Source: Nitrosopumilus sp. b3
GTDB lineage: Archaea; Thermoproteota; Nitrososphaeria; Nitrososphaerales; Nitrosopumilaceae
Length of the DNA stretch: 32,000 bases
Assembly: GCF_014078525.1 (NCBI RefSeq)
Contig: NZ_MU078695.1
Span: 68,851 to 100,850 of the forward strand
Direction of reading: 5' to 3'
Shown: piece after piece, positions 139 to 16,410 of the stretch
How the letters are laid out: the number at the start of each line of letters is the position of its first letter
Numbering within the stretch: position 1 is the first letter of the stretch
Notes under the pieces: model-generated
Told to the model about the DNA's origin: nothing
What the model saw: the letters and a program-made list of their open reading frames with translations, nothing else
The model's database searches: none
Translations under genes and position numbers: made by a program

Positions 139-3100
139 ATGACAACCGCAAACGATCTTTTCAACCCAAAGACGATCAGGCGTTTGTGTTCAGATGTAAA
201 AATTTCTACCAAACAAAAAAAGGCTGCAAGTGAATGGCTGAAGCTGTTAGAAAGCGGACAGTTAGAAAAAGAAAAGCAGAATTATTTCAAATTCGGACTG
301 ATTGTTCTAAAAGATCTCCTTGGATATCCTGTCAAAGAAGATATGGGGTATGAGGAAGGCAATGTAGAATTTACGTTTTCAAATAATGAAGGCAAAAAGA
401 TAGTTTGTTTCGAAGCCAAGGGAACAAAAACAAAGGATCTGTTTGCGCCACAGTATAGAGACAAGAAGGAACACTCCACTCCTGTGAAACAGACATGGGA
501 TTACATGGGTATACTCAATCTTGATTACGGAATAGCCACAAACTACGAACAGTTTGTGCTTATAGACAAAGGCAAAGGAACATCAAAGTTTCATTCATTC
601 CACTTCAAAGACATCAAGAAGGATGAAGAGAAATTAAGAGAATTCATTGCAATCTTTTCTAAAAGCAGTATCATAGACAACAAATTCGTCACCACTCTTT
701 ATGATCAGTCAGTTATAGAAGAAAAAGAGTTCACCAAACAGTTCTACAGATTATTCCATGAGACTCGCCTTATGTTGATTAAAGAATTTCAAAGTAATGG
801 AGAGATTCAGAGAGACGAAGCAATCCATTATGCACAGTTGTTTTTGAATCGAATGGTGTTCATCTTCTTTGCAGAAGACACCGGAAAAGTTCCACAGAGA
901 CTAATTCGGGATCAGATATTGAAAGTACTAGACGCAGTTCCAGTGTCAGAGCATTCAAAATATGCATACGACACGATTTTTTCACTTTTTGAAAGTCTTG
1001 ACAAGGGGTCGAACACGCCAGTACAAATTTTTGGTTTTAACGGAGGTCTGTTCCAAGACAAAATCCCTCCAAGATTTTATGTTAAAGATTTAACACCTTC
1101 TGGATTTTTCAAGAAAGAATATCAGAATTCGGAGTTAAAGAAGAAAGTAAAGTTAGACGAATTTGCGGAGAAGGTTATAAAAAAATATCAAAACAGAATC
1201 AATCCCATAATCACTAATTTACTTTACATGTCTTCATTTGATTTCAATACGGAGTTAAACGTAAACATCCTTGGGCATATTTTTGAACAGTCACTAACAG
1301 ATCTTGAAGAATTACAGGAGACAAAAATCTCAAAACGAAAGATTGAGGGAATTTTTTATACTCCCGAATATGTCACAGACTTCATTTGCAGGAATGCAAT
1401 TATTCGTCATTTGTCAAAGAATAATGCTTCCAACATAGAAGATTTGATAAAAGAGTATTCAGAAGATATCGGACAACTAGAAGAGAAATTCAAGGGAATC
1501 AAAATTCTTGATCCAGCATGTGGCTCTGGTGCATTCTTGTTAAAGGCCGTTGATATATTGTTAGAAATTCACAAACAAATTCAGACGTACAAAGAATTCA
1601 AAGGACAGTACAGTATTTCCATGAAAGGTAAGAAAGACAAGAAGATATCAGAGCAGTTTACACTTTCAAAATGGAATGAAGAAAGTGAGGCAAAAAAGAT
1701 TATTGAAAGTAATATTTTTGGAGTAGATGTCAATCAAGAATCGACAGAGATCACTAAACTGAGTTTGTTCTTGAAAATAGCCACAGGTAACCGTAAATTA
1801 ATTGATTTATCAAAAAACATTCGAGTCGGAAATAGCCTAATCGACGATAAAAAAGTAGATTCCAAGGCATTCGATTGGAAAAAAGAATTCAAGGAGATTT
1901 TTGATAAGGGTGGATTCGATATTGTGATTGGAAATCCTCCATATCTAAGAATACAGGGATTGCATGAAGGCCACGAACATACCACAAAATTTATCGAAAA
2001 AAACTTCCATTCCGCTACAGGGAGATATGATTTCTATGTTTTGTTCATAGAGAAAGGTTCAACATTATTGAAGAAAGATGGTTATCTAGGGTTCATTGTT
2101 CCTCATAAATTTACTGCAGCGCAGTTTGGTTCAGGAATTCGAGACTTCTTGAAAAAAAATAAGTTAATCGACACTTTCATCAGTTTTGGACACAATTTTG
2201 TTTTTGAAGATGTGACAACTTACACAGGCATACTAATCTTGAAGAATTCCATACATGACAAATTTTTCTTTAAAGAAATTGGCAAGTTATCATCAGGTTC
2301 GATTGAAAGTGAATTATCCCTAATTCATAGAAATGATTTTTCACAAATATCGTTTGATTCATTGTCTGAGAAACCTTGGAGTTTGCAATCCGATTCACAT
2401 CAAGGCATTACCAAAAAAATCAATGAAGCAGGACCTCCGATTACAGAACATTTTGACAAAGTTCTTCAGGGAGTAATTACAGGAGATGATGAAATCTATT
2501 TCCTGTCTTTAACCAAAGACAAGGGAAAAACGGCAATGTTTCATTCTTTGAAAGCAAATTCAGAAGTAGAATTAGAAAAGGAATTGTTAAGACCAGTATT
2601 GGGAGGAGAGGACGTAAAACGATTCAAGGAGATAAAACCAAAGCAGTATGTAATTTATCCATATGTAGTAGAGTCTGGAAAGCAGAGGGTTTTGGAAGAA
2701 TCAGAGTTGAAGAAGAAATATCCTTTGGTTTATGATTATTTGTTAAAATTTAAACCATATTTGATTGACCTGAGAAAGCGTTTCAAAACAAATCCCAAAT
2801 TCTGGTACGGTTTACACAGATCACGTCAGTTAAGTTGGTTTGAACAAGAGAAAGTAATGACGCCTGAAATATCCCTTGGATGCAATATGACGCTAGATAA
2901 CGAAGGACATGTACACAATACCCAAGTATACAGTTTCATACGCAATACAGAAAACAAAATCGATAACAAGTACTTTTTAGCGATTCTAAATTCAAAGATA
3001 TCTTGGTTCTATTTGAAAGGCAGTGGAAATGTTTTACGTGGAGGATATCTTAGATTCAAATCAAAGTATCTCGAGCCATTCTGCATACCAGTTCCAGACA

Positions 3101-3483
3101 AAAAAGTAGAGAAAAAACTAGTTGATAAAATGACAGACAGGTTAGACAGACAGAAAAAGTTTGATGATAAATATTCTAAATTCATAAACTTAGTAAAAAT
3201 TAATTTCAAGCTTGACAAGATTCCATCGTCGATTAACAAATTCTATCAAGACAGTTTTGAAGCCATGCTTACTTCGTTAGAAAGTGAAACAAGGGTAAAG
3301 ATTGGCATAAAAGACAAGTCAGAACTGATGGATATTTTCGAGTCAGCTTCAAAAGATTTGTTAAAAATAAAATCAGAGATTTTTGAAATAGATGACGAAG
3401 TAAATGGGATTGTTTACAAACTTTACAATTTGGATGAAAGTGAAATCATGGAAGTAGAAAAAAACTATCCTGAAGTTAATTGA
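139..3483 (+). CDS. Type IIG (Eco57I/MmeI-like) fused restriction endonuclease / N6-adenine DNA methyltransferase
   Basis: 1114-aa ORF. N-terminal PD-(D/E)xK-like 'NVEF...CFEAKG'. Methyltransferase motif I 'ILDPACGSGAFL' and motif IV 'VIGNPPY' (NPPY). Long C-terminal region consistent with a target-recognition domain. Confidence 0.85.
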   Translation: MTTANDLFNPKTIRRLCSDVKISTKQKKAASEWLKLLESGQLEKEKQNYFKFGLIVLKDLLGYPVKEDMGYEEGNVEFTFSNNEGKKIVCFEAKGTKTKDLFAPQYRDKKEHSTPVKQTWDYMGILNLDYGIATNYEQFVLIDKGKGTSKFHSFHFKDIKKDEEKLREFIAIFSKSSIIDNKFVTTLYDQSVIEEKEFTKQFYRLFHETRLMLIKEFQSNGEIQRDEAIHYAQLFLNRMVFIFFAEDTGKVPQRLIRDQILKVLDAVPVSEHSKYAYDTIFSLFESLDKGSNTPVQIFGFNGGLFQDKIPPRFYVKDLTPSGFFKKEYQNSELKKKVKLDEFAEKVIKKYQNRINPIITNLLYMSSFDFNTELNVNILGHIFEQSLTDLEELQETKISKRKIEGIFYTPEYVTDFICRNAIIRHLSKNNASNIEDLIKEYSEDIGQLEEKFKGIKILDPACGSGAFLLKAVDILLEIHKQIQTYKEFKGQYSISMKGKKDKKISEQFTLSKWNEESEAKKIIESNIFGVDVNQESTEITKLSLFLKIATGNRKLIDLSKNIRVGNSLIDDKKVDSKAFDWKKEFKEIFDKGGFDIVIGNPPYLRIQGLHEGHEHTTKFIEKNFHSATGRYDFYVLFIEKGSTLLKKDGYLGFIVPHKFTAAQFGSGIRDFLKKNKLIDTFISFGHNFVFEDVTTYTGILILKNSIHDKFFFKEIGKLSSGSIESELSLIHRNDFSQISFDSLSEKPWSLQSDSHQGITKKINEAGPPITEHFDKVLQGVITGDDEIYFLSLTKDKGKTAMFHSLKANSEVELEKELLRPVLGGEDVKRFKEIKPKQYVIYPYVVESGKQRVLEESELKKKYPLVYDYLLKFKPYLIDLRKRFKTNPKFWYGLHRSRQLSWFEQEKVMTPEISLGCNMTLDNEGHVHNTQVYSFIRNTENKIDNKYFLAILNSKISWFYLKGSGNVLRGGYLRFKSKYLEPFCIPVPDKKVEKKLVDKMTDRLDRQKKFDDKYSKFINLVKINFKLDKIPSSINKFYQDSFEAMLTSLESETRVKIGIKDKSELMDIFESASKDLLKIKSEIFEIDDEVNGIVYKLYNLDESEIMEVEKNYPEVN

Positions 3484-3553: not shown

Positions 3554-4441
3554 ATGTCAATGCAGTATTTTCAACTATCGCAGTCTCTAGACCTTATTTT
3601 ACAGAAAGTCAACAACATCCACGGACTCCGTTTCTTGTATAATATAGCGAAAAAGGGAGCAAACAAGGATGAACAAGATGACCTTGAATTAATAGAGTCG
3701 GTCACAAAACCTTTCTTTGATCCTTATACTGAAAGCAGACAGTTGTTTACACAGTGGATGATTGACAGTGATATCTACATATCAGCCACCAATTTTGACA
3801 AGGATAACTTTCTCAAACGATTTGTAAAACAAAGAGACAAGGTTCAAACAGAATTTGATAAAATCAAACCGAATTCCAACAAACTGGCTGAAAAAGTAGG
3901 AGAATTAAAAATTCACTTAGATGCATTGGAAAGACACGGTACACGAAAAGCCGTCATCTCAAGCATTAAGCAAAAAAGTACCCCCCAACTAGAAGATACA
4001 ATAATTCTTGAGAAAGGCAAAACAGTGGATATCCTAAAGCAAGTATCTGAAATTTTCAATGGATCCGCAAGATTTCTCAAAGTCATGGACAAGTGGGCAG
4101 GCGTAAAAATGCTAGATTATTTCGTGTCAGTTCCAGAAATTCCCATAAAAATCCTGACATCTAATCTTGAAAAGAAAAGTGAAATTGAATTTCAAGTGAT
4201 GCTAAACAGAATAAACGAAACCCGTTCCAATAAAATCGAAGTGCGTGTATGTGATCCTAAAGAATTTCATGACAGATACATCATTAATGAAAAAGACTTG
4301 TGGATGATTGGTTCTTCGTTGAAAGATGTTGGATATAAGAACTGGACTACCATCACTAGGACAAATGACAATGAAAAGAGAGGAGACATCAACAACATAT
4401 TCGATGATTTGTGGAAAAAATCATCGGTCTTTTCGTTTTAA
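3554..4441 (+). CDS. Hypothetical protein with C-terminal 'HDR'-motif domain (possibly PLD-fold, MIT_C-like)
   Basis: 295-aa ORF 70 nt downstream of the RM gene on the same strand. The C-terminal 'FHDRYIINEKDLWMIGSSLKDVG' recalls the HDR...G..L signature I remember for MIT_C/PLD-like domains; this assignment is low confidence. Confidence 0.6.
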   Translation: MSMQYFQLSQSLDLILQKVNNIHGLRFLYNIAKKGANKDEQDDLELIESVTKPFFDPYTESRQLFTQWMIDSDIYISATNFDKDNFLKRFVKQRDKVQTEFDKIKPNSNKLAEKVGELKIHLDALERHGTRKAVISSIKQKSTPQLEDTIILEKGKTVDILKQVSEIFNGSARFLKVMDKWAGVKMLDYFVSVPEIPIKILTSNLEKKSEIEFQVMLNRINETRSNKIEVRVCDPKEFHDRYIINEKDLWMIGSSLKDVGYKNWTTITRTNDNEKRGDINNIFDDLWKKSSVFSF

Positions 4442-5355
4442 GAATTCTTTCTAGGATCAATACCTATCTCAAGCATTCTTTGTATGATTTCATATGAAAA
4501 TTTTTCAGCAGTTGTTTTTTCCAATAAGATATTCTTGTATGGATCACTGTCAAAACTCCAATTATTCACACATGACAAATGCTTGAAAAAACCCAAAAAC
4601 AAAGCAGGGATTTTTAACTCGAAGTCCATAATATTTTCTAAATTGAGCAGTATTTTGTGATTTACAAAATCATATTCAACAATCATATCGCCATTTATTT
4701 CTGTGTCAATTTTTGCAGGAAAAATCCCATAGTATTCTGAAAGGAGGATGTTTGCATCATCATAATTTTCAAGCAACATCTCTGTAACATATTTTCTGAT
4801 TATGTCATCAGAGGGAATCTTGTATCCTGTGTATTTGTTTGTCCTAGTACCATATGCTGCAAGTATAGGATTGTCTTGGTTGTCAAAATTTATTTTTCCT
4901 TTATAGATGGCAAGTTCTTGATCATGTCTTGAACCAGGTTTTATAATATCTTCAGATTTTTCTTTTATGATTTTGTATGCATCTTGGACAAATTCCTCCC
5001 ATGTATCATAATCTTCAGGCAAAATCATTTCATCCCAAGCAAGAATAAGACAGTTGTTGTTATCTGCTATTTTTTGTCTAATTTTTTGGTGCCATGAGGA
5101 ACCATTGAACTTTCCTTCATCTATAAAATCTTCCAGATCATCACGCACATACTTTGCAATGGCCTGTGCATTTTTCCTGTCAATCTTTTTTCTATCTCTT
5201 CTCCAAATTAGAATATAACAAGAGTGCGGTAGAGTAAACTTGAAGTCAATATATTCCCAAGTACCGCCGGAATTCAACTCGTCGGTTATGTGCATGTCAT
5301 GAATGGTCCCATATTCATCCGCAAATGCTAAAACATATGCATCGTCCGTGTACAT
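4438..5355 (-). CDS. Hypothetical protein (305 aa), no recognisable motifs
   Basis: Long uninterrupted ORF convergent with 3554..4441; the two stop codons overlap (TTAA at 4438-4441). Acidic, no TM segments. Confidence 0.6.
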   Translation of the reverse strand: MYTDDAYVLAFADEYGTIHDMHITDELNSGGTWEYIDFKFTLPHSCYILIWRRDRKKIDRKNAQAIAKYVRDDLEDFIDEGKFNGSSWHQKIRQKIADNNNCLILAWDEMILPEDYDTWEEFVQDAYKIIKEKSEDIIKPGSRHDQELAIYKGKINFDNQDNPILAAYGTRTNKYTGYKIPSDDIIRKYVTEMLLENYDDANILLSEYYGIFPAKIDTEINGDMIVEYDFVNHKILLNLENIMDFELKIPALFLGFFKHLSCVNNWSFDSDPYKNILLEKTTAEKFSYEIIQRMLEIGIDPRKNS

Positions 5356-5433: not shown

Positions 5434-5631
5434 ATGGCAACAAAGTATAGTATTCATGTTAAAAAAGACGGCAAATTCTATGTCGGGTATTGTATTGAGA
5501 TTCCACAGGCAAGAGGACAAGGCAATACCAGAGCAGAAGCAATTGCGGACACAAAAGAAGCCATAAAAATTTGCAAGTCATATTTATCGTCTAAAAGAAA
5601 ATCCACCAAAGCTGTTACCGTAACGATTTGA
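5434..5631 (+). CDS. hicB: HicB-like antitoxin (UPF0150 family)
   Basis: 65 aa. 'YSIHVKKDGKFYVGYCIEIPQARGQGNTRAEAIADTKEAI' matches the typical HicB N-terminal fold pattern. TATA-like 'TTATATA' about 27 nt upstream of the ATG. Overlaps the downstream toxin gene. Confidence 0.8.
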   Translation: MATKYSIHVKKDGKFYVGYCIEIPQARGQGNTRAEAIADTKEAIKICKSYLSSKRKSTKAVTVTI

Positions 5632-5843
5632 GTCTTCCTGTTTTGGGGTGGCGCGAAGTTTTGGGTGCGCTGAAGAAAAAAGGATTTTATCCATCACGCC
5701 AAAGAGGCAGCCACATCATAGTTGAAAATGGTCAAGGTTTATGGTCCTCAGTCCCACGTAAAGATGAGCTTGGGAAAGGACTGCTCTTGGCAATAATAAA
5801 TGATTGTGGTCTTACCAAAGAAGAGTTTTTGGAATTGCTATAG
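5628..5843 (+). CDS. hicA: HicA-like mRNA interferase toxin (YcfA family)
   Basis: 71 aa. '...LKKKGFYPSRQRGSHIIVEN...' is the characteristic HicA core with GSH. TTG start overlaps the hicB stop (TTGA). Confidence 0.8.
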   Translation: MSLPVLGWREVLGALKKKGFYPSRQRGSHIIVENGQGLWSSVPRKDELGKGLLLAIINDCGLTKEEFLELL

Positions 5844-5866: not shown

Positions 5867-8800
5867 CTAGTCTGACGAGCTTGAATACAATATGTTTGCA
5901 ATGTCTATCATGCTGTCAAATACTGACTTACAAAATATGTTGATCTCTTTTTCAGAAATAGTAATTTTATTTTTGTTCAAGATAGAACTCACAATATCGA
6001 TTAATTCTACTAGCGTTCCTTGGTCGTTGCTTTGATGTTTCATGTAGATGGTTTTTGCAAGTTCGGTATTCTCTGAAACATTGTAATGTCTTTTTAATTC
6101 TCTATCAAAGCCCCCATTATTTGAAATATTTTGAAATGCCTTTTCAGAAGAAATGATACTGATAACGGAATCTCCTACCAACGATACAATGTTTGTGTTT
6201 TTGTTAAACAGCATTGTAATGATGTCTTGTAATGCAACAGTAGGAGTCTTGTCTTCTTTTGACGATGCTGCAATCTTGATTCTATCTAATACTCCTAGTT
6301 GGGTCTTGACAAGTTCAGAAATTGTTTTAACAGGGTTTTCTCTACTTTCAGCACCACCTAACTCTAGATGTTTGAATGTTAAATCTGACGGAATTACACG
6401 AATCAAGTTGTATGTGAATTGCAAGTTTGTTTCACTAGGATTATCTTTTTCAAACTTTTTTTCTGCGTGTTTAAAGGCATTATGGAATAAAGTAGTAAAG
6501 TTCCCAAAATCTTTGATATTCATAGGGATGATGCCAATTCGAGTGGATGCTCCTGAGGTTTTATCTAGAATTAACATGTTCTTGTATCTATCATCATTAT
6601 TGATTCTTGCTAGCTCTTCGCATGAATCTTTCATATAATCATCAATGATCGGCATTACTCTTCCGTCACTACGAGTAATCATGTAAGCAGAAATCATCTG
6701 AGATGTTAATGCATGCTCAATAAAGTCTACGCTGATTTGAGTAGTCATCACATTGGCCAAAGCCATCTGAGTCTTTTCAAGTAACTTACGGTACTTGTCA
6801 TCTGTAGACATACTCTCAAGTTTTGAATCAATTTTGTCAAATCTAACTCCGGCTAGCTCTTTTGTGCTTCCAAAAAGCACACCCTTTTGCAATTCTGCAG
6901 TAAAGTCCACTAATCCGTTGAACTTGGTAATATCTCCCGAAAATACTTGCATACAAATTTTGCCAAGAGTTATTTTTTCATGTCCAAATTGTTTTTCAAA
7001 TCCATGCCTTTCCATCCATGCATAGAGAGTCTTTACAGTCAACTCATGAACTGACGCTGCTTTACATGATTCTTCTCTTGCAACATCAAAGTACTGGGTA
7101 AAGAATAATACAAGTGATGAGAAAACAAGTGCATCCATTTCATTTTCAGTCATTGTTTTCCACTGTTGATTTGCTATGATGTGCTTTGATAACAAAAGCA
7201 TTGACAAAAATCTTGATTTGTTGTTTTCATTTTGAAAAACTTCTATGATTTTCTCAACAGATACGTTTCCGGTGTTTTTTATTTCCTGTTCGTTTAGAAA
7301 GTCAACAAAGTTGTTCATGTCGGCTATGAGTCTTTTGTGAAATTCAAATGATGTCGATAGATCATCTAATAAGAAGTCATTTTTTGAATGCATCAGTTTG
7401 ACAAGAAGGATTTTCTGATTTTCTGTAATGTTGTTAAAGACGGATAAAGGATCTTCTATCAAAATCTCTGCCAATCCCAAAGTTAAGTTATTATCAATGA
7501 TTTTCTTGTACAGCGTCTTTCTCTCTGTTCTCAGTTGAATGTAATCATAGTAGAAAAGAAGAATGATTTCTTTTTTGATGCCGATTTTACTTGCAAGTCC
7601 TTCAGAAATATCTTCTTCTAAATTATCCCCACTAAACAGAATTTTATCAAAGTAATCCAGTCTGATTTTTTCTGGTATTGGATTATTTCGTGCCTCCAAT
7701 GCAAACGCAATCAGATTTTTGATTCTGACATTTGATTGAATTTGTTCAACGATCTTGGATTCCATTGAAGATAAATTGAACTCTGACTGTTTTGAGATCA
7801 CTTTACGACAGATATTTTTGAGATTTTCTGTGTCTTGATTTTCTAGATGAATTATTCTGTTGTCTACAAACATATCTGCAACAGAGGAAATCATGCTGTC
7901 TTGGGTTCTAGAGGTGCTCCAAATCCTGTTTGATGCCTGAGTTTCACCGATATAGTCAAGGTACACAAGCATAAGCAGCATCGGATTATCTATGGACAGT
8001 ACCTCTGAAACCTTGTTGATCAGTTGTTTGCTCCAGTTATCATAAATTGCAGTGGATGGAAGGAATTGCATAATTTCGTCCTTCTTTTGATTGTTTATGC
8101 TAAATTTTACATCACGAAGAATCTGCAACACTAATTTTTTCTCCTTTTCCAAGTCAGTGTAAAATGCCTCATACAGTTTCAGGAATTCTTTAAGCGAGAA
8201 TGGAGACATTCCAGAAACCATCTCTACAAACGCTCCTTTGTTTTCGTTTTTTGGTTCTATGTTGAACTTGTGCATCAGAATAAAAACTAGTTCATCGACC
8301 TTTTGATCTTGTTTCAGAAGGCTCCAAATGTCTTTCAAATTCGTTTCATTATTTGTATAATCATAATAGCATATTTTCAAAACAAGTTGAGAAACTTGCA
8401 AATGCTTGGAAAGTTTTGACGTTATGCCATCCAACCATTCAGATTCTGTCTGGCTTAAACTACTAAATTTCATCAGTCTCCTTTCAGATTCTTTGTCCAG
8501 TAAGCGGTACTCAGATAAGGCATTGCATAATGACAGAGCAAAGTATTCTTGATTGTGTTTGATGGATTTTCCCGAATAGTATTCCTTTAGTCCCGGGACA
8601 TAGTCTTGTATCACTGCAATATTTTTTGCAAGTCTTTCTTTGATGTCTTGGAAATTTCTTTTGTTTGTAGACAGGTTTGATTCTATTTTGACATCGGATT
8701 CTGGAATTTCGCCTGTCTTTTCATGGAGTCGATTTAGATTGTCATTTTCGTTGTCCCTTGTTCTTATCAAATTCGAGTTAATCGAACTGTTAGTCTTTAT

Positions 8801-9280
8801 GATCAGTATCAGCAGTCCTATGAAAGTAGCTATTCCAGGTATGAGTAATGGATCTATGGGGATTTTTTCGAGTTCAGGATTTATCTGTAGAACATCTAAA
8901 GAAATTACCGCATACAAGGCAAAGAACAATATTCCAAAAATTATCAAAATTGTGATTAATTTCCATTTGATTGATGAAGCGATTTTGTCTAATGCGTTGA
9001 TTGTATCCTTAGTAGTTTTGACTGAAGAACGTATGAAATCGGATGCAGATTGTTTGAACAAATCAAATCGGTGATTGATTTTGTTTACGGATTCATTAAT
9101 TTTGGATTCATTTTTTTCTACATCTTCAAAAAATTTCTCGCTATCTCTCTTGAACTGATCTTCGTTGTTACGGATTTTTTCTTCAGACTCGTCAAGTTCC
9201 TTTTCGCGTTTTCTTAGATCTTCTCCACGAACGTCACGTAATTCGTCTAATTTGTCGCTATTTTCTCTCTCGTTGACCAT
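5867..9280 (-). CDS. Giant hypothetical membrane-anchored protein (1137 aa): N-terminal charged coiled coil, two TM helices, large uncharacterised C-terminal region
   Basis: Uninterrupted 3.4-kb ORF. N-terminal ~95 aa are E/K/D-rich. Hydrophobic stretches 'WKLITILIIFGILFFALYAVISL' and 'LLIPGIATFIGLLILII'. No Walker or nuclease motifs seen by eye. Confidence 0.75.
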   Translation of the reverse strand: MVNERENSDKLDELRDVRGEDLRKREKELDESEEKIRNNEDQFKRDSEKFFEDVEKNESKINESVNKINHRFDLFKQSASDFIRSSVKTTKDTINALDKIASSIKWKLITILIIFGILFFALYAVISLDVLQINPELEKIPIDPLLIPGIATFIGLLILIIKTNSSINSNLIRTRDNENDNLNRLHEKTGEIPESDVKIESNLSTNKRNFQDIKERLAKNIAVIQDYVPGLKEYYSGKSIKHNQEYFALSLCNALSEYRLLDKESERRLMKFSSLSQTESEWLDGITSKLSKHLQVSQLVLKICYYDYTNNETNLKDIWSLLKQDQKVDELVFILMHKFNIEPKNENKGAFVEMVSGMSPFSLKEFLKLYEAFYTDLEKEKKLVLQILRDVKFSINNQKKDEIMQFLPSTAIYDNWSKQLINKVSEVLSIDNPMLLMLVYLDYIGETQASNRIWSTSRTQDSMISSVADMFVDNRIIHLENQDTENLKNICRKVISKQSEFNLSSMESKIVEQIQSNVRIKNLIAFALEARNNPIPEKIRLDYFDKILFSGDNLEEDISEGLASKIGIKKEIILLFYYDYIQLRTERKTLYKKIIDNNLTLGLAEILIEDPLSVFNNITENQKILLVKLMHSKNDFLLDDLSTSFEFHKRLIADMNNFVDFLNEQEIKNTGNVSVEKIIEVFQNENNKSRFLSMLLLSKHIIANQQWKTMTENEMDALVFSSLVLFFTQYFDVAREESCKAASVHELTVKTLYAWMERHGFEKQFGHEKITLGKICMQVFSGDITKFNGLVDFTAELQKGVLFGSTKELAGVRFDKIDSKLESMSTDDKYRKLLEKTQMALANVMTTQISVDFIEHALTSQMISAYMITRSDGRVMPIIDDYMKDSCEELARINNDDRYKNMLILDKTSGASTRIGIIPMNIKDFGNFTTLFHNAFKHAEKKFEKDNPSETNLQFTYNLIRVIPSDLTFKHLELGGAESRENPVKTISELVKTQLGVLDRIKIAASSKEDKTPTVALQDIITMLFNKNTNIVSLVGDSVISIISSEKAFQNISNNGGFDRELKRHYNVSENTELAKTIYMKHQSNDQGTLVELIDIVSSILNKNKITISEKEINIFCKSVFDSMIDIANILYSSSSD

Positions 9281-9322
9281 ACTGCATTTAGAAATTAACG
9301 ATTTAAATCACTATTCATACTA

Positions 9323-9634
9323 TCATAGTTTTTTGTATCTTGTTCTACAAAATGCCTCAAAATCATCATATTTCTTGCATGCGTAGTTGTCCCATCTCTC
9401 CGAGAGTTCTGCGATGTTGTGTCTTTTCCAGTTCTCATATTCTGTCTTTTCAAGCTGCTTGAGCAGAGATTTGTCGTTTGCAATGTCTACTTTTGACATG
9501 ACTATCCAGTTATCAGCGATATATCCGGCAAGAAATCCAAACGTGTCAATCTCGTAGAACATCACTTCCCCAAGCCTTGAATACGGATCGTAGTTTCGGG
9601 CCTCGCCAATTATCATTCCTTTCTCGTTTACCAC
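9323..9634 (-). CDS. Hypothetical protein, paralog of 9957..10400
   Basis: 103 aa. Shares 'IGEA(R/K)NYD..SR.G', 'Y(E/Q)NW(K/R)' and 'F..FCR..Y' blocks with the ORF at 9957..10400. Confidence 0.6.
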   Translation of the reverse strand: MVNEKGMIIGEARNYDPYSRLGEVMFYEIDTFGFLAGYIADNWIVMSKVDIANDKSLLKQLEKTEYENWKRHNIAELSERWDNYACKKYDDFEAFCRTRYKKL

Positions 9635-9650
9635 ATAGCCCTGAATTTTC

Positions 9651-9854
9651 TCATTTTTGATAAAAATCCCTCTTGTACTGTTTGATCATCTTTTGTGCAT
9701 CAGAAAACGAGACAGGCTTCCAGTTTCTATCTTTGATTGCACCATTGTCAATTAGTTCCTCAACGCTGATGTATCCCCACTCTGCCATCTGGTCGTCATT
9801 TAGATTTGCATAGCCAAACGCAAGATTCTGCTTTACATCAAGTTCTGCAATCAA
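9651..9854 (-). CDS. Hypothetical small protein (67 aa, TTG start), possibly the C-terminal part of an interrupted longer gene
   Basis: The ORF has no ATG start. It lies in the same frame as upstream ORF 9957..10433, separated only by one TGA, with no further stop for 102 nt. Confidence 0.4.
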   Translation of the reverse strand: MIAELDVKQNLAFGYANLNDDQMAEWGYISVEELIDNGAIKDRNWKPVSFSDAQKMIKQYKRDFYQK

Positions 9855-9956
9855 CCAATAGAATCCTATTCTATCAATTGACCACTTTTCGTAAATCTTC
9901 TTTTTCTCAAATTCTATTCCATCAGTTTCATACAGTGCAGGAATTTTTTCTGAGAT

Positions 9957-10400
9957 TCAATCACCTTGAGGAGTCTTTACTGATTCTCTTTTGGAATCAA
10001 AGTAAAATGCAGTCTGAAGGTATTCTACGCATTCTGAAAACATGCTAGTCAGAAATTCGTTTAGTTCGCCCTTGTGTTTTGATACATAATAGCCTCTGCA
10101 AAACTGGTCAAAATCAAGCAAATTACGTCTAATTCTTTCGTAATCGCTCTGAAGCATGCCACGGTTCTGATATCGCCAATTTTGATATTTGGCCTCAGCA
10201 AGAGACTTTCTAAGGGGATCCTCTTTTTCTATACGCTGCGCTTCAATTATTTTGCAGTCATCATCTAGAATCAAATCTCTGAATTCATCTCCATCTCCCA
10301 GATGATAGAGTTTCAAAAATCCTTTCCTTGAATGAGAGTCGTAGTTCTTTGCTTCTCCTATCACTTTGTTTTCAGAGTTTATGATATAGTTTTTTTCCAT
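9957..10400 (-). CDS. Hypothetical protein, paralog of 9323..9634
   Basis: The ORF is open from 10433, but 'MEKNYIINSENKVIGEAKNYD' (ATG at 10400) aligns with the N-terminus of the paralog. Start is uncertain. Confidence 0.6.
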   Translation of the reverse strand: MEKNYIINSENKVIGEAKNYDSHSRKGFLKLYHLGDGDEFRDLILDDDCKIIEAQRIEKEDPLRKSLAEAKYQNWRYQNRGMLQSDYERIRRNLLDFDQFCRGYYVSKHKGELNEFLTSMFSECVEYLQTAFYFDSKRESVKTPQGD

Positions 10401-10469
10401 ATCTATCTGAAAACTGGTTAGATTCAGGCACAAAATGCGTTATGGATGGATGATTTTCCGAAAAAACCA

Positions 10470-10901
10470 TCAAGCAGTTATTGGATAGTATGTGATAACA
10501 AATGGAAGTACAAAACACACTATTGAAGCAATAAGCAGAACAACCTGCATCCAGTTCCAACCCATTCCTACGATATAATGCCACATGAAAAAGAACATCG
10601 CAGTTAGTCCAGATGCTAGTATCAGGAATTTGTATTCAAGAGAATCCACAAAGTCAATCAGTGTTTCAGAAAACATAATCCCTACTGCAGGAATCACAAA
10701 AACAGTTAGGAAGAACAGCAGTGTGGCAATCTTCCATGTAGCGACAAGAGGTCTGAGGTTTTTGTGTCCTTTCACTCTTTTGAATCGAAAGTGCCATCCG
10801 GCATTGTCACGGTATATCGACAACAGTATTGCAATCTCTTCAAGAAAGAACAGAAATGCACCTACAAGTGCTACGTTATAGATTGTTGATAGTTCCACCA
10901 T
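10470..10901 (-). CDS. Integral membrane protein (about 4 TM helices)
   Basis: 143 aa, four long hydrophobic segments, immediately downstream of the ATPase gene on the same strand. Confidence 0.65.
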   Translation of the reverse strand: MVELSTIYNVALVGAFLFFLEEIAILLSIYRDNAGWHFRFKRVKGHKNLRPLVATWKIATLLFFLTVFVIPAVGIMFSETLIDFVDSLEYKFLILASGLTAMFFFMWHYIVGMGWNWMQVVLLIASIVCFVLPFVITYYPITA

Positions 10902-10961
10902 GTTTTCTCAATAATTGTTTAAAGTGTTAGTTCTTAATTGCTTCCATTATCACTAATTGCA

Positions 10962-12815
10962 TCAATTCATTCTGGTCTTTATTTTTTCAAAGAAGTCAGG
11001 AACGTTTTGTATTAGGAGAAACAAAACGTTAGAATACTTGTTTTCTTGTTTAAGAGATTCTAAGAGTTTCTTATCGTCTGAAGTTACAACAACTGCATCA
11101 TATTTGGTTACATTTCGTGAAATGTTGTAATGTATGTCTGAAGTTCCAAGTTCAACTTCAACCACTGAATTAAATTTAGAAATCATAATGTCAGGACCGT
11201 CTTTGACGTTGTTTCTTATCTCCAGTCCAATGCCATCAATCTTCTTTGAAATCCAGTCGACATAGAACTGATGTCTTACACTTGGAATCTGTTTCGGTTT
11301 TTGATAGAGAATAATTGGTGCTCCTCTTCCAAGCTTTGCCTTTTGGATCTCAATCTTCTTTTTCTTCAACAGAGATTTGACCACTGAGGCATACTTCTTG
11401 TCGTCCCATCCAAGAGATTTTCTCCTTTGACGGACTGGCAAGAAAGGCTGTTTTTCCAGAAATTCCAAAAACTCATTCTCTTCGGGTCTAGGCAAATCGA
11501 TTTTTTCAGGCACAAAATTCTCTGTTTCAGGCTCATGTGCACGTATTGGAAAGTCGTCAGAGATTATCAGAAATGGTTCGTGCCCGATTGTGCTTACTAT
11601 GGCGTTCTTGTTTGGAAGTCTTACGAATTTGTCTGAAAGATATTCTGCCTCTATTGGGTCAACAAACCCGACAGACTCTGCAATAATTTTAATGTCTTCT
11701 TGATGCTGCAGTCGGAATGAAATCTTTGTTCCGGTATTTTTGAAGATGTCTCTTTCAATATTGCTTGGCGACTGCGTGATCAGAACTATTCCACATCCTC
11801 TCTTTCGCAATCTTGTTGCAAACTCTGTTGCAGGCCACGACTCTGTGACAATCATCTTGTGAAGAATTCTTGGAACTAACAGTTGTGCTTCGTCTGCAAC
11901 AAATATGTTTGTCAGTTGTTCGGTTTGCTCTCTCTTCAACATTTTTCGCAGAAAGTAAATCGTGAATATGTTGTAAATCAGTCTTAGTTCAGAGTTGTAT
12001 GCTACTAAAGAATCAAGTTCATGAAGGTCTATGACAACATTTTTCTGATCAATAGTTGTAAAGTCAGGATTTGATTTTGTGCATAGAAAGATTTCTTTTA
12101 GCGGGCTTCTAAGAAAAGGATCTAATCTTACCAGAAGTGCAGTCTTTGTCTTTTGCAGTGCAGTTAGCTTCTGTCTGTCATATGATTTGATGTTGTGAAT
12201 TAGTTCTTCAATGCTGTTGCTTTCTTTGATTGTTTCCTGAAGGACAAAGTTCATCTGAGCTGAAAGGTCTGTGTATTCTTTTTCAATTCCTTTGAAGACA
12301 GTTTCTCGAAACAATTCTCTTATCAGTCCTGGGTCTTTCAGATCAAAAGGATTGATTCTCAGGTTTTTGCCAACTGCACAATACGTTGTTTCTTTTCTTA
12401 GATTTGGAATGATGTTTTTCCATTCTCCTTCCACATCTATGATCAAAGCCTTTGGTCCTGACTTTTCCACTTTCGATACAAGATTCATTGCAAACCTTGT
12501 CTTTCCAGAACCTGTCTGTCCGGATATCATCGTGTGCTTTGTCAGAATGTCGCTTGGAAGATTGAAGGGTAGTCCTTCAGAGGTTCTGCCCAGTTTCATG
12601 CCCCAATAGTCCAAAATAGGGCTGTTTTCGAGCCTGAATCTCACGATTTGGCACCTTGGACAGTATCTTTTTCCTCTCACAAAGTTTCCGCAAATACATT
12701 GCCAGTTCACTGCCACACCTCCCGACATATTTGACAGAGTTTGTAGAGATTCGGCTTTTGCTGTCTCATCACTACTTTTGTCTCGATGTGAAACATGCAG
12801 AATATCTGCTGGCAT
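10962..12815 (-). CDS. Zn-ribbon / HerA-FtsK-superfamily (DUF87-like) P-loop ATPase with C-terminal wHTH-like and PD-(D/E)xK-like regions
   Basis: Zn-ribbon 'CICGN...CPRCQ'; Walker A 'GQTGSGKT'; Walker B-like 'IFVADEAQ'. The C-terminus has a basic helical segment, then 'GPDIMISKFNSVVEVELG' (nuclease-like, inferred). An alternative start 'MSGGVAVNW' at 12728 would reduce overlap with the upstream ORF. Confidence 0.8.
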   Translation of the reverse strand: MPADILHVSHRDKSSDETAKAESLQTLSNMSGGVAVNWQCICGNFVRGKRYCPRCQIVRFRLENSPILDYWGMKLGRTSEGLPFNLPSDILTKHTMISGQTGSGKTRFAMNLVSKVEKSGPKALIIDVEGEWKNIIPNLRKETTYCAVGKNLRINPFDLKDPGLIRELFRETVFKGIEKEYTDLSAQMNFVLQETIKESNSIEELIHNIKSYDRQKLTALQKTKTALLVRLDPFLRSPLKEIFLCTKSNPDFTTIDQKNVVIDLHELDSLVAYNSELRLIYNIFTIYFLRKMLKREQTEQLTNIFVADEAQLLVPRILHKMIVTESWPATEFATRLRKRGCGIVLITQSPSNIERDIFKNTGTKISFRLQHQEDIKIIAESVGFVDPIEAEYLSDKFVRLPNKNAIVSTIGHEPFLIISDDFPIRAHEPETENFVPEKIDLPRPEENEFLEFLEKQPFLPVRQRRKSLGWDDKKYASVVKSLLKKKKIEIQKAKLGRGAPIILYQKPKQIPSVRHQFYVDWISKKIDGIGLEIRNNVKDGPDIMISKFNSVVEVELGTSDIHYNISRNVTKYDAVVVTSDDKKLLESLKQENKYSNVLFLLIQNVPDFFEKIKTRMN

Positions 12816-12934
12816 CTTTCACATACTCTTTTACAGTTGATGCAGGTCAAAGAAAGACATGTGTAGCACTCGCCGTTGATTTCGTTTCTTTTTGACAGAG
12901 ATTTGCATATGCTGCATCTAACCAGATTTTCCAT
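12707..12934 (-). CDS. Small multi-CxxC zinc-binding protein (75 aa)
   Basis: Cys pairs 'CSIC', 'CYTC', 'CINC', 'CERC', 'CQIC'. In the same-strand train between the integrase and the ATPase. Confidence 0.5.
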   Translation of the reverse strand: MENLVRCSICKSLSKRNEINGECYTCLSLTCINCKRVCERCQQIFCMFHIETKVVMRQQKPNLYKLCQICREVWQ

Positions 12935-13097
12935 TGTTGATCACTACAAAACATTTTGGACAGACCAGAACATCATCAATCAACTGCAAACACATCTCGC
13001 AGCATTTGTTGTTGCATTTGTGACACACACCAAGAGTTTTGTAAGAATTAATCGAGTGTCCACATTTCAAAATTATTGATTCGAATTCTTCGTACAT
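12918..13097 (-). CDS. Small multi-Cys zinc-binding protein (about 59 aa from 'MYEEF')
   Basis: The ORF is open from 13130, but the ATG at 13097 overlaps the TGA of the upstream 41-aa ORF (TGATG), suggesting translational coupling. Contains 'CHKC', 'CEMC', 'CPKC'. Confidence 0.5.
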   Translation of the reverse strand: MYEEFESIILKCGHSINSYKTLGVCHKCNNKCCEMCLQLIDDVLVCPKCFVVINNGKSG

Positions 13098-13222
13098 CAC
13101 TCTTCCTCCATGTCGACAAACGCATTGCACAGATCACAAAGTGGAAAGTTCTCCCAAAAATGTATGCCGTATTTTTCATCGTCTCCACGATATTCTTTGC
13201 ATCGAGTACAGAACCCTTTCAT
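13097..13222 (-). CDS. Mini zinc-ribbon protein (41 aa), below the ORF-track length cut-off
   Basis: Hand translation of the minus strand gives MKGFCTRCKEYRGDDEKYGIHFWENFPLCDLCNAFVDMEEE*, with two CxxC pairs. The stop overlaps the next ORF's ATG. Confidence 0.4.
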   Translation of the reverse strand: MKGFCTRCKEYRGDDEKYGIHFWENFPLCDLCNAFVDMEEE

Positions 13223-13281: not shown

Positions 13282-14583
13282 TTAGACGTCTTCTATTTTT
13301 TGTAAAAGAAGATCAAACTGTTTCTGAGAATCTTTTTTGTTTGAGGCTGTCTTCGGATTACAAATCTCTGTTAGTGCGTTCTTCAACTTCTCCATTTTTT
13401 CGGAATCGGATGCGATTCCATACAACAGTTGGTCGAGTTTCTGCTTTTTTTGATCAAGAGCAACAGAATTTTTGACGTTAAGAAAAGCACCGCATCTATA
13501 GCAGAATTTAGAGACAGGAGAGTTTTGTATGCTGCACCTGAAACATTCGATTGATGTTATCTGTTGGATGTTCTCTTCTGGTTCTTTGACTCCGTTGAGT
13601 GTCCTGACTGCCTTGTCAATATGCCTTCCATATCTCTTCATGTATGTTCTTGGCATCTTTGAGCCGAACTGCCATCCCATAACCAAACACTGTTGAGGTT
13701 CATTGAGTTTGTCCAGAATCTCGTCGGCTTTTGTGTGTCTGAAGAGATACTTGAATACCCTCTTCTTGATTCCGGCCCTTGCTGCAATCTTCTTGATTAG
13801 TCGATATGACGCGTTGTAGTCTATCTGCTTGTTACGGTTGGAACGTCCAAAGCCTACCCATAATGGAGCGTCTGTTTCGTCTGACCTAGGATGGATGTTA
13901 AGCCAGGTGGTCAACGCAGGGACAGATGTGATAATTCTTACAAAATCTTCTCCTTTCTTTCCATGAACCCATAGTTTTGCCCCTGTTGAGTCAAATTCGA
14001 TATCTCCAATGTGTAACGTCAGGACTTCTTCAGGCCTTCTTCCAGATTCAAAGAAAATCTCCAAAAGTGCCCTGTCTCGAGGATTTTGAGTGGCGTTAAG
14101 AAGTGCAATCTTTTCGTCATATGTCAGCAGGTTTTTTGGAAGTATAGGATGCTTGCTCTGCAGATTTTTCTTGTCTTTTATCCATCTAACTTCTGGAGGA
14201 TATCCGTAATCGTCCCAGTCTTTGAAGGACTTCCAGAACTTCTTTATGATGATCTTGAAATCTCTTTTTGTCCAGTCCGACCAGTCCTTTCTTTCAAGGT
14301 CGGCGACAAACTTTATCAAGTCATCTTTTGTCACGTCTTCAAATGGTTTTCCTATATCTGTAGAAACTTGTCGCAATGTGTTAAGACATTTGCAGATTCT
14401 TGATTTTGAAACACCTTCTGCAACTCTGACATAGTAGTACTTGCGGAGAGTTTCCGAATTGTACTTGTCGTCTTTTATCTTTCTAAGTTCTGAATCTATC
14501 CTCTTGTCCAGTTGGTACAATTCTTCTGCTCTGCTCATTACATCAACCTGTTTTCTGTTTAATTGTAGATTGCATGTAGACAA
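13282..14583 (-). CDS. Tyrosine recombinase / integrase with C-terminal zinc-ribbon and helical extension
   Basis: 433 aa. Catalytic-region motifs 'ESGRRPEEVLTLHIGDI' (Arg I) and 'LFRHTKA' (R-H box), with a Tyr-bearing 'RTYMKRYG'. After the catalytic domain comes 'CFRCSIQNSPVSKFCYRCG' (CxxC-x10-CxxC) plus a charged tail. Confidence 0.9.
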   Translation of the reverse strand: MSTCNLQLNRKQVDVMSRAEELYQLDKRIDSELRKIKDDKYNSETLRKYYYVRVAEGVSKSRICKCLNTLRQVSTDIGKPFEDVTKDDLIKFVADLERKDWSDWTKRDFKIIIKKFWKSFKDWDDYGYPPEVRWIKDKKNLQSKHPILPKNLLTYDEKIALLNATQNPRDRALLEIFFESGRRPEEVLTLHIGDIEFDSTGAKLWVHGKKGEDFVRIITSVPALTTWLNIHPRSDETDAPLWVGFGRSNRNKQIDYNASYRLIKKIAARAGIKKRVFKYLFRHTKADEILDKLNEPQQCLVMGWQFGSKMPRTYMKRYGRHIDKAVRTLNGVKEPEENIQQITSIECFRCSIQNSPVSKFCYRCGAFLNVKNSVALDQKKQKLDQLLYGIASDSEKMEKLKNALTEICNPKTASNKKDSQKQFDLLLQKIEDV

Positions 14584-14584
14584 T

Positions 14585-14750
14585 CTTCCGAATTAAAACG
14601 CAGAGAAAATGCACGGTGCAGCCCTTGACCCGTTACAAAAGGCTGGGGAAGTGCCTATATTATCAGGTCAGTTGCTGAACTGATTGTTTCTCTGCATTTT
14701 TAATGATTTTCGGAAAGAGGATTGGATCCGTTACACCTGCACAACGTGCA
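14585..14750. promoter_or_regulatory. Structured GC-rich divergent control region between integrase and orc1/cdc6 (imperfect 24-31 nt inverted repeat, nested hairpins, repeated palindromes)
   Basis: Left arm 14585-14608 'CTTCCGAATTAAAACGCAGAGAAA' pairs with right arm 14687-14717 'TTTCTCTGCATTTTTAATGATTTTCGGAAAG'. Inner stems are GCAC/GTGC plus CAGCC/GGCTG (14611-14654) and TCAGTT/AACTGA (14668-14683). TGCAC(N1-3)GTGCA occurs at 14610-14620 and 14738-14750, and CCGTTACA at 14630-14637 and 14728-14735. Confidence 0.45.
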
Positions 14751-14913
14751 CCCCTACAACGAATACAATTCTCATTCAGAAAATCTCATGACAAAGACTT
14801 CTTTTCTAATAAAAAATAATTTTCTATGTTCCAACAGCTATTTTGCAAAAGCTGTTTTTTCGGAAAATGGTCCCATCACAATATTTAAGCTTGATAAAAT
14901 TCGTTTAGCAAAA

Positions 14914-15894
14914 ATGAAAAAGCAGATATTATTGGACAGGAGCGTATTTGAAGATACCTTCATCCCAGAGACGTTCGTTTCAAGAGAAAATCACATTAGA
15001 GAGATCATTCGGCATCTACAGCCTGTAAAGAATGGCGATTTTTCACAGTATCTGTATATTCACGGGCCACCAGGCGGAGGAAAAACTGCAATAATCAGGT
15101 CGATTCTCAAAGAAAACTTTCCAAAACAGCATGTCTATGTGAATTGTTTCAGAGACAGAACTGCCAACAAGATAATGGAGGAAGTGTTACTTCATTCCGG
15201 AATTATGTTCAGCGGAAGAGAATCAACAAGAGATATGATCAAGAAGTTTGAGAAATCTAAGAAGAGAATGTTGATTTGCCTTGATGAGGCAGATTATATC
15301 AAAGACACAGACATACTAGGGGTTTTTGTAAGAAATCTCTGTGGACTAATACTGATTTCTAACAATCATTCTTTTTCAAAAATAGATTCCAGATTAAGAA
15401 GTAGAATATTCTTTAATGAAGTAGAGTTCAACCCATATGAACCTGCAGACATCAATCAGATTCTGACTCATCGTATTTCCTATGGTTTACGTGACGGATG
15501 TATCAATGACAATCTTCTATCGGTACTATCAAAGTTCTCCAACGGAGATGCAAGAATTGGACTGCAGACTCTAAAGATAGCAGCAAATGAGGCTGAATCC
15601 AACAACTCGGAAACCATCACCATGGATGAAATAAAGTTGTCTGCCAAGAGAACCAGAAAATACAGACTGTCACTTGTTTTAGGTGAGCTCAACGAACACC
15701 AGTTGAAAATTCTAGACATCCTCAAAGAACACAACAATCTGAGATCGGGCGAGTTGATGAGGATCTACAGGCAGAGGACACAACACGACATTAACGACAG
15801 GACATATCGCAACTACATGATGCAACTTGTCGATTTTGCACTTGTAAAAGAAGGAGGCACCACAAAGGCAAGGACCTATGAGATTTTGTTGTAA
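14914..15894 (+). CDS. cdc6: Orc1/Cdc6-family AAA+ replication initiator (short form)
   Basis: Walker A 'GPPGGGKT', Walker B 'CLDEADYI', C-terminal winged-helix-like region. The ORF is open from 14722, but 'MKKQILLDRSVFEDTFIPETFVSRENHIREI' has the canonical Orc1 N-terminal spacing, and the upstream part covers the repeat-rich control region. Confidence 0.9.
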   Translation: MKKQILLDRSVFEDTFIPETFVSRENHIREIIRHLQPVKNGDFSQYLYIHGPPGGGKTAIIRSILKENFPKQHVYVNCFRDRTANKIMEEVLLHSGIMFSGRESTRDMIKKFEKSKKRMLICLDEADYIKDTDILGVFVRNLCGLILISNNHSFSKIDSRLRSRIFFNEVEFNPYEPADINQILTHRISYGLRDGCINDNLLSVLSKFSNGDARIGLQTLKIAANEAESNNSETITMDEIKLSAKRTRKYRLSLVLGELNEHQLKILDILKEHNNLRSGELMRIYRQRTQHDINDRTYRNYMMQLVDFALVKEGGTTKARTYEILL

Positions 15895-15936: not shown

Positions 15937-16281
15937 GTGGATTTTGACGGATTTCAGTTATTGATTGAAAGAGACTACAAGGAGTTTGCAGAGTTTGAAG
16001 AAAATTCAAAGAATATGTCATTAGAAGAACTGAAAGAAAATCACAATAATTGGCGCAATAAGATGAAAGACATTACTGAAAAATACGGATTTTCAAATGA
16101 AAGTGAAAAAGATCCTGACATTTCTCTGTTCATGGTCAAACTGACATATTTTTACTATCTTGCAATGTTCTGTTGGAAGTCTTTGCGGGCATATACTGAA
16201 AGACTTGCAGAAGAGCATCAAAAATTGAAGAAATCTAAGAGAAAAACAACTGCAAAGAAAAAAGCCAAGAAAAAAGAGTAG
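15937..16281 (+). CDS. Hypothetical protein (114 aa, GTG start) with Lys-rich tail
   Basis: ORF directly downstream of cdc6. Its stop codon lies inside repeat copy R1. One hydrophobic segment and a KKxK tail. Confidence 0.5.
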   Translation: MDFDGFQLLIERDYKEFAEFEENSKNMSLEELKENHNNWRNKMKDITEKYGFSNESEKDPDISLFMVKLTYFYYLAMFCWKSLRAYTERLAEEHQKLKKSKRKTTAKKKAKKKE

Positions 16282-16302
16282 AGATATTGTAAGCGTCTCA
16301 AT
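16278..16302 (+). repeat. Cassette-boundary repeat copy R1 (GTAGAGATATTGTAAGCGTCTCAAT)
   Basis: The first 20 nt are identical to R2. Contains the TAG stop of 15937..16281. GAGAT/GTCTC can pair around the TGTAAG loop. Confidence 0.8.
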
Positions 16303-16402: not shown

Positions 16403-16410
16403 AAAAATAA

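Follow-up and report, generated by a model that had tools for sequence, protein, structure and literature searches.

The co-directional genes at positions 5867 to 13222, on the minus strand of a 32,000-nt stretch of DNA from Nitrosopumilus sp. b3 (here called the window), are in our judgment probably a mosaic of a conserved element backbone, a local insertion, and an unrelated giant cargo gene. Comparison with related loci shows that the backbone, made up of the small genes g46, g70, and g75, a HerA/FtsK-superfamily ATPase, a DUF2958-like gene, and g103, belongs together with a tyrosine integrase and Cdc6/Orc1 to a widespread plasmid-like integrative family of the Nitrososphaeria. An earlier, sequence-only reading of this gene train had grouped the ATPase, a 143-residue transmembrane protein (g143), and a 1,137-residue giant into one module. 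Across related elements the three do not co-occur, an outcome that the same reading had itself named as refuting: among loci with the ATPase, g143 has homologues in 0/59 and the giant is found in 1/40, and the loci that carry the giant mostly lack the ATPase. The mobile-element setting beside an integrase, which the same reading had proposed, was borne out, as was its statement that no named system matches this combination of genes. As the train illustrates, genes on a mobile element can be tightly packed in one direction without forming a single functional system.

A conserved backbone and its element family

About 85 related loci, labeled L001, L002, and so on, were drawn from genomes, metagenomes, and individual contigs, and their open reading frames (ORFs) were searched with the window proteins and with family profiles; co-occurrence is given throughout as the number of loci with the partner over the number of loci assessable. 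In genome and metagenome loci alike, the order Cdc6, integrase, g46, g70, g75, ATPase, g67, g103 recurs. The 2.5 kb upstream of the ATPase contain g70 or g75 in 51/65 loci, and g46 lies upstream in 38/58; the integrase accompanies the ATPase, in either orientation, in 23/33 loci and Cdc6/Orc1 in 19/27. On the other side, the DUF2958-like gene (g67) is found no more than 3 kb downstream in 29/59 loci, usually 16 nt after the ATPase stop codon, and homologues of g103 follow it in 16/53. The ATPase is the most conserved gene, with 42 to 88% identity across loci, compared with 30 to 58% for the integrase and 26 to 50% for Cdc6. At least 225 ATPase homologues were found, nearly all of them in Nitrososphaeria; a few copies of the family sit in genome bins labeled Bathyarchaeia and Aenigmatarchaeota. 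The conserved part of each element amounts to about 8 kb with no capsid candidate, and downstream of the ATPase the related loci have no conserved multi-transmembrane ORF.

In the window, the replication initiator Cdc6/Orc1 (14722 to 15894, plus strand; Pfam Cdc6_lid and AAA domains) is divergent from the integrase (13282 to 14583, minus strand), an XerA/XerC-like tyrosine integrase with a C-terminal zinc ribbon (Pfam Phage_integrase, 43.2 bits; NCBIfam XerA). The rest of the backbone continues on the minus strand with g46 (13097 to 13222), which opens the backbone operon and encodes a 41-residue CxxC...CxxC zinc-ribbon protein; g70 (12918 to 13097; 59 residues) and g75 (12707 to 12934; 75 residues), which encode multi-Cys zinc-binding proteins; the 617-residue ATPase (10962 to 12815), the signature gene; and, past the insertion, the DUF2958-like gene (9651 to 9953 in its extended form; about 100 residues) and g103 (9323 to 9634; 103 residues), a member of a conserved family of about 100 residues that belongs to the backbone of Nitrosopumilales-type elements.

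An ORF check of the window recovered all of the minus-strand ORFs that had been listed. Every train ORF except that of g143 has homologues elsewhere and is thus a real gene rather than a chance ORF. The junctions stood as well: TGATG at 13097 is a real stop/start overlap, the overlaps of 17 nt between g70 and g75 (12918 to 12934) and of 109 nt between g75 and the ATPase (12707 to 12815) are real, and the other junctions are gaps of 3 to 60 nt. Homologues refine two of the starts. The start of g46 is the ATG at 13222, and the GTG at 13237 chosen by the ORF finder is probably not a start; in the alignment, the homologues begin MRGFCxRCKEY and keep four Cys. For g70, contained in ORF 12918-13130, they point to the ATG at 13097, which shares its A with the TGA of g46. 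The g70 protein (GAGTGATGTAC) falls into the same BLAST cluster as g75 and the Cys columns of the two align, which makes them paralogs. The zinc-ribbon proteins may act as DNA-binding or regulatory partners of the ATPase.

The backbone genes are probably one operon with a promoter upstream of g46. A single transcript over the whole train, as had been suggested, appears doubtful, because g46 and the giant each have a TATA-like hexamer (TTTTTA and TTTAAA, respectively) 27 nt ahead of the start codon, as judged at the motif level.

The DUF2958-like gene had been listed as a 67-residue ORF (9651 to 9854), an ORF that covers the C-terminal two thirds of a conserved protein about 100 residues long; the apparent gap at 9854 to 9957 is coding. 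Its family alignment (A4) has a mean column identity of 75% and the motif pattern IPxLYxTE...WY/WL..E.D...FGY..L...AEWGY.S..EL. Of 13 members compared with Pfam, 8 match DUF2958 alone (best E = 9e-4), and a search of the family profile against the Protein Data Bank (PDB) came back empty. In a distant clade, an orphan N6_N4 DNA methylase gene directly follows the DUF2958-like gene. We know of no function assigned to DUF2958 itself.

Elements of this type are already in the literature, where they are catalogued solely as "cryptic integrated elements" and are uncharacterized. The closest case is NitAQ6f-E1, a 58-kb cryptic element integrated at tRNA-Met of Nitrosotenuis sp. AQ6f (Krupovic et al. 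2019, PMC6563490). An ATPase homologue, P0025, lies inside it, at 1616631 to 1618472 of the Nitrosotenuis sp. AQ6f genome. P0025 is annotated as arCOG00280 "HerA helicase" beside AbiE, XerC, and Cdc6, and the homologues of g67 and g103 are listed as hypothetical (PMC6563490). That survey treats the cryptic elements as lacking signature genes and does not discuss an ATPase module (PMC6563490). The window carries in synteny the tyrosine integrase, Cdc6/Orc1, and arCOG00280-type ATPase that define the NitAQ6f-E1 type, and the two share, in the same order, Cdc6, the XerC-type integrase, g46/g70/g75, the ATPase (61% identical), the DUF2958-like gene, and g103. NitAQ6f-E1 differs in having an AbiE pair before the ATPase and metal resistance and ThiF/YukD-like cargo, and in lacking both the giant and g143. 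In the globally important ammonia-oxidizing archaea, most mobile elements carry no label but "cryptic"; one such family, and a widespread one, now has a recognizable signature module.

The ATPase and its relatives

The ATPase is identical to b3 protein C6990_05440, encoded on a 157-kb contig. Its assignment to the HerA/FtsK superfamily from sequence alone was correct, with a Pfam DUF87/HerA score of 50.2 bits against a cutoff of 23.2. The Walker A (GQTGSGKT, residues 99 to 106) and Walker B (DEAQ, 308 to 311) motifs are invariant or nearly so across the family alignments. From the N terminus, the protein consists of a zinc ribbon (C41 to C56), a P-loop core of the HerA/VirB4/TrwB clade, a winged helix, and a C-terminal domain. 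The winged helix (about 444 to 505) is composed of three helices and a hairpin in the AlphaFold model and alignments, and the C-terminal domain (513 to 616) is modeled as alpha-beta-beta-beta-alpha-beta, with H515, D542, E555, S559, and N564 invariant. The AlphaFold2 model (predicted local distance difference test [pLDDT], 85) matches HerA 4d2i in Foldseek with E = 3e-16. Foldseek also matches it, with template modeling scores of 0.6 to 0.7, to the VirB4 C-domain 4ag5 (0.69), to DndH-C 7es4, and to TrwB, the likeness to TrwB being generic for the clade. A profile search against PDB sequences found distant HerA proteins only. The best PHROG match is annotated as a terminase large subunit, and in PADLOC, mad8 scores best, followed by defense-type HerA models.

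The P-loop core fold and its motifs are thus common to the window protein and the HerA/VirB4/CedB-CedD/TrwB clade, while the N-terminal zinc ribbon, the C-terminal winged helix, and the nuclease-like domain are its own. It is not HerA proper: the N-terminal HAS-barrel is absent, the model placing the zinc ribbon and two short strands before Walker A, and in NCBIfam it scores 35.5 and 14.8 bits with HerA models whose cutoffs are 800 and 970. Nor is it a VirB4 or other type IV secretion ATPase, Ced/Ted included, as it has neither a hydrophobic segment nor the VirB4 N-terminal domain. The best NCBIfam matches are to CedD (98.9 bits; cutoff, 600) and VirB4 (TIGR00929, 60.3 bits; cutoff, 643), and orthology to either was rejected on the grounds that the scores fall far under the cutoffs and that a transmembrane segment and partners are lacking. 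A type IV coupling protein (TrwB/VirD4/TraG) is not indicated either: Pfam TrwB_AAD_bind covers only the P-loop, residues 86 to 134, and there is no transmembrane segment. Membership in MADS was likewise rejected, since the ATPase alone matches (mad8) and no other train protein matches a mad model.

Judged from the model, the C-terminal domain can tentatively be called nuclease-like. Set against the PD-(D/E)xK fold, it has a compatible predicted order of elements and invariant D542 and E555, and at the lysine position K is not conserved.

We infer that the ATPase is the DNA-handling motor of the element. It would form a ring of the HerA/VirB4 type, its winged helix would recognize element DNA, the ATPase would translocate or process that DNA, and the C-terminal nuclease-like domain may nick or cut it. 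It would in this way serve propagation of the element, be it in mobilization, in segregation, or in feeding DNA into a route of transfer that is encoded elsewhere. A role of the backbone in propagation is argued for by its being the most conserved gene set, in a fixed position; by its linkage to the integrase and the replication initiator; by the DNA-binding and nuclease-like domains of the ATPase; and by the establishment-type genes that follow, namely, the DUF2958-like gene, which would supply an establishment function, and, in one clade, the orphan methylase. Because no membrane component is conserved, the element probably relies on a transfer route encoded elsewhere. It is conceivable that a compact motor of the HerA/VirB4 clade explains the spread of archaeal elements that have neither capsid nor pilus.

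HerA/VirB4-like ATPases have been proposed to move plasmid DNA in pT26-2 (t26-14p; PMC6972569) and in pR1SE (ORF25; PMC10818511). Like the family described here, the pT26-2 family of the Thermococcales/Methanococcales and the pR1SE-like plasmid-vesicle plasmids of haloarchaea are integrative plasmid-like elements that combine a small conserved core, which includes such an ATPase, with a large variable region. The cores of pT26-2 and pR1SE, however, are rich in transmembrane proteins, whereas the window family has no conserved membrane protein, and we found no sequence similarity between them.

The local insertion and the giant

The window holds two genes between the ATPase and g67: g143 (10470 to 10901, minus strand), a 143-residue ORFan, and g158 (9957 to 10433, minus strand), a diverged duplicate from the g103 family that has 158 residues and is extended at its C terminus; the probable start of g158 in the family alignment is the ATG at 10400. 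Two features described from the sequence hold: g143 does have four hydrophobic segments, as expected of a protein with four transmembrane passes, and g103 and g158 are paralogs (BLASTP E = 2e-13, 30% identity). Neither the g103/g158 family nor g143 nor the giant matches a family in Pfam, PHROGs, PADLOC, or NCBIfam. The ATPase-DUF2958-like junction is occupied by differing inserts in L003, L011, L013, and L018, and the comparison shows g143 and g158 to be a window-specific insertion at this hotspot. The 33 N-terminal codons of g67 (9855 to 9953) are intact and in frame and contain no ATG, GTG, or TTG, the only canonical start being the TTG at 9854. They directly follow the TGA of g158 in the same frame, so that a single stop codon stands between the two genes. 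The insertion may have removed the start codon of the DUF2958-like gene, and the arrangement could be the scar of a recent insertion or could point to read-through or a non-canonical start.

In L028, the g67-g103 pair is preceded (positions 1 to 156) by the end of another gene, which is not a HerA-like ATPase, and the pair can thus move without the ATPase.

The giant (5867 to 9280, minus strand; 1,137 residues) is identical to b3 protein C6990_05415. A full phmmer scan placed it in a family of at least 107 clusters (clustering at 50% identity), whose members are mostly 1,100 to 1,150 residues long and align end to end at 20 to 33% identity; word-seeded homology searches, with the single sequence and with a profile, retrieved the giant itself only. 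The coiled-coil N terminus and two transmembrane segments that had been proposed are supported: a long charged N-terminal helix leads into a hydrophobic hairpin at about 100 to 167. In the AlphaFold2 model (pLDDT, 81.5), the helix and hairpin are followed by an all-alpha body and a small alpha/beta domain (864 to 962). Alignment A1 places the invariant residues Y866, G910, R914, G916, P919, and F925 in this domain, which carries the motif GGxxTRxGxVPxGM, and P408 further upstream. The model has no significant Foldseek match in PDB or BFVD, and the PADLOC v2 defense models gave nothing at E <= 0.05. As the hairpin has two transmembrane segments, the N terminus and the large domain must share one side of the membrane; the flanking charges suggest that this side is the cytoplasm.

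The one locus, among the 40 assessable ATPase loci, that carries the giant is a sister element, L002, whose ATPase is 78% identical to that of the window and whose giant is truncated to 652 residues; it also shares the HicBA, 305-residue, and MmeI cargo with the window. Elsewhere the giant occurs in varied company. It comes directly after Avs2 (E = 1e-190) in L030 and directly before PDC-S54 (E = 2e-72) in L036. In L028 the order g67-g103-giant is followed directly by an AriA/GajA-like ATPase and then by type I restriction-modification genes, with no HerA-like ATPase. The giant is one gene from PDC-S05 in L027, L037, and the window, the order in L027 and L037 being giant, a protein of about 193 residues, and the PLD-like PDC-S05 gene; in L037, an EcoRI restriction-modification system, ApeA/PDC-S58, and insertion sequence elements lie within 10 kb. 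In L031 it belongs to a small D5-primase/integrase element and in L038 it stands among metabolic genes. The G+C content of these contexts ranges from 0.36 to 0.47. Two ORFs of 101 and 108 residues upstream of the giant in L035 were considered as g67 and g103 and rejected, as they are similar in size but not homologous.

These contexts show the giant to be an independent and independently mobile gene, and its TATA-like hexamer suggests a promoter of its own. In the window, the variable cargo region begins with it. Taking the structural model together with the neighborhoods, the giant is most likely a membrane-anchored cytoplasmic protein that acts in defense or in conflict between mobile elements. 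It represents a large uncharacterized family that is recurrent in defense islands.

A more specific picture joins two proposals: that the giant family is an unrecognized single-gene, membrane-anchored defense or conflict protein with the alpha/beta domain as its core, and that the backbone is a distinct integrative-plasmid family with a terminase-like motor and no conjugation apparatus of its own. We offer this joint proposal tentatively and think it somewhat less likely to be right than wrong. A terminase-like motor would recognize, cut, and pump element DNA for transfer; the alpha/beta domain of the giant would be the active or sensing core if the defense reading is true.

Alternative explanations, cargo, and element ends

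The strongest competitor to the mosaic holds that the zinc-ribbon genes and the ATPase form a HerA-type defense system with a fused nuclease effector that is merely carried by the elements. The closest solved and PADLOC relatives of the ATPase are indeed defense HerAs and mad8, the C-terminal domain fused to it looks nuclease-like in the model, and AbiE pairs adjoin the ATPase in several loci of a region full of defense genes. SIR2-HerA/Nezha, DUF4297-HerA, and mad8 of MADS belong to the same ATPase clade and are paired with a nuclease-type effector. In these anti-phage systems, however, the effector is separate and the genes are variable cargo, whereas the window ATPase is fixed beside the integrase and Cdc6; across the family, it is the most conserved gene in an invariable position, while known defense cargo changes from locus to locus. 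The ATPase also lacks the N-terminal barrel of HerA, no other train protein matches PADLOC, no other mad or SIR2 component is present, and the DUF2958-like gene and the orphan methylase of one clade are typical of element establishment. We therefore regard a carried defense system as unlikely, but not negligibly so. Far less probable is the original proposal of a single operon, spanning the whole train, for a new system of ATPase, membrane protein, and giant that serves DNA transfer, secretion, or defense. It would account for the co-directional genes with gaps of at most 60 nt or overlaps, for the truncated giant directly after the ATPase in L002, and for the g67-g103-giant order kept in L028; it is contradicted by the co-occurrence counts for g143 and the giant given above, by the lack of a conserved transmembrane partner downstream of the ATPase, and by the TATA-like box of the giant itself. 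We give even less credence to a provirus morphogenesis module, spindle-shaped or pleomorphic, in which the ATPase would be the packaging enzyme, the giant would serve in adsorption or as a tail protein, and g143 would be a hydrophobic protein of the capsid or membrane. For putative spindle-shaped viruses of ammonia oxidizers, a shared set consisting of an ATPase, a small hydrophobic capsid protein, and a Zn-binding protein has been proposed (PMC10866085), which the train recalls; many contigs with the ATPase are 31 to 35 kb long, and its best PHROG is a terminase. A profile scan of a viral-contig collection, however, did not find the ATPase family there, nor did scans with two giants find close relatives in that collection; g143 is not conserved, the roughly 8 kb conserved per element has no capsid candidate, and the large domain of the giant, which is predicted to lie in the cytoplasm, matches no viral structure model. 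The NYMAG-47-type putative spindle-shaped viruses were rejected as relatives for similar reasons: they come from IMG/VR, where the ATPase family was not found, and the hydrophobic protein of the window is not conserved.

The mosaic with a propagation backbone remains the reading that we favor, and several observations weigh against it. The DUF2958 match is under the Pfam cutoff (the L008 member scores 18.6 bits against 21; E = 0.0024). A profile of the ATPase C-terminal domain found no matches in PDB or Pfam, and its nuclease label comes solely from the predicted order of secondary-structure elements and the invariant acidic residues. With no transmembrane segment and no conserved membrane partner, the ATPase alone cannot carry DNA through a membrane. 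Anti-phage HerA subunits are among its nearest solved relatives and its best PADLOC match is mad8, which leaves room for a role in defense. The case for the giant in defense is one of guilt by association, with about eight independent contexts behind it, and some linkage between g103 and the giant is possible, as L028 keeps g67-g103-giant without the ATPase. Neither an attachment (att) pair nor the element ends were found in the window. The genome and metagenome sets of loci may share a few duplicates.

Content beyond g103 varies by locus and is rich in defense genes. To the left of the giant in the window, the cargo comprises a HicB/HicA toxin-antitoxin pair (5434 to 5843, plus strand) and a 305-residue gene with no assigned function (4438 to 5355, minus strand), and further on lie a PLD-like PDC-S05 candidate defense gene (3554 to 4441, plus strand; PADLOC E = 4e-15) and an MmeI-like type IIG restriction-modification enzyme identified by Pfam (139 to 3483, plus strand; 1,114 residues). 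L001 carries type I restriction-modification genes together with CTD10/MC6/DUF2326, L003 carries a pair of PaaX-like and HATPase genes, and AbiEi/AbiEii pairs sit between g75 and the ATPase in several loci. SLFN/AlbA_2 and Piwi proteins directly follow the g103-family gene in L007 (12629 to 15616) and L009 (11201 to 14198); in these Nitrosotenuis elements they look like a short Argonaute-type defense pair. The cargo of the family thus extends over restriction-modification, AbiE, short Argonaute-like pairs, and ABC-3C-type genes.

The left end of the element is probably beyond position 1 of the window. On the other side, Cdc6 is adjoined by g114 (15937 to 16281, plus strand), a gene for a small lysine-rich protein with homologues beside Cdc6 in L003 and L042. 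Just beyond Cdc6/g114, a 54-nt direct repeat (16320 to 16373 and 18159 to 18212, 87% identical) flanks a 1.8-kb segment with an S-adenosylmethionine (SAM) methyltransferase gene and a DUF1801 gene. Within the repeat, the palindrome CCCACWGTGG (16343 to 16386 and 18182 to 18192) has 5 matches, counted on two strands at three sites, where 0.01 would be expected. The repeat could be the right att site of the element or an origin-recognition box; as a family-wide origin or att signal, both the repeat and CCCACWGTGG were rejected, being absent from all other loci. Three intergenic copies of a 34-nt motif, GAAAAAAGAGTAGAGATATTGTAAGCGTCTCAAT-like, are arranged around the methyltransferase gene (16269 to 16302, 16402 to 16435, and 17029 to 17062). 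The sole RNA gene detected in the window by ARAGORN and Rfam is a tRNA-Thr (TGT) at 27473 to 27547, which was discarded as the attachment site since no direct repeat matches it.

Related loci offer some views of integration. In L003, a tRNA-Arg (1587 to 1664) lies about 2 kb beyond Cdc6, with host-like aquaporin and peroxiredoxin genes on its far side, and is probably the integration site of that element. NitAQ6f-E1 sits at tRNA-Met, and the two cases suggest that members of the family use different attachment sites. About ten contigs with the ATPase, including those behind L001, L006, L011, L041, L042, and L043, are 31 to 35 kb long, and in four of them the ATPase is 4.3 to 5.4 kb from a contig end; these contigs may be complete elements that assembled apart from the chromosome, as judged from the one end of each that was read. 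L017 has a second ATPase at about 9.6 to 11.7 kb and L012 has a 230-residue ATPase fragment at the start of the locus, and such second or fragmentary copies within 10 kb suggest tandem or nested elements.

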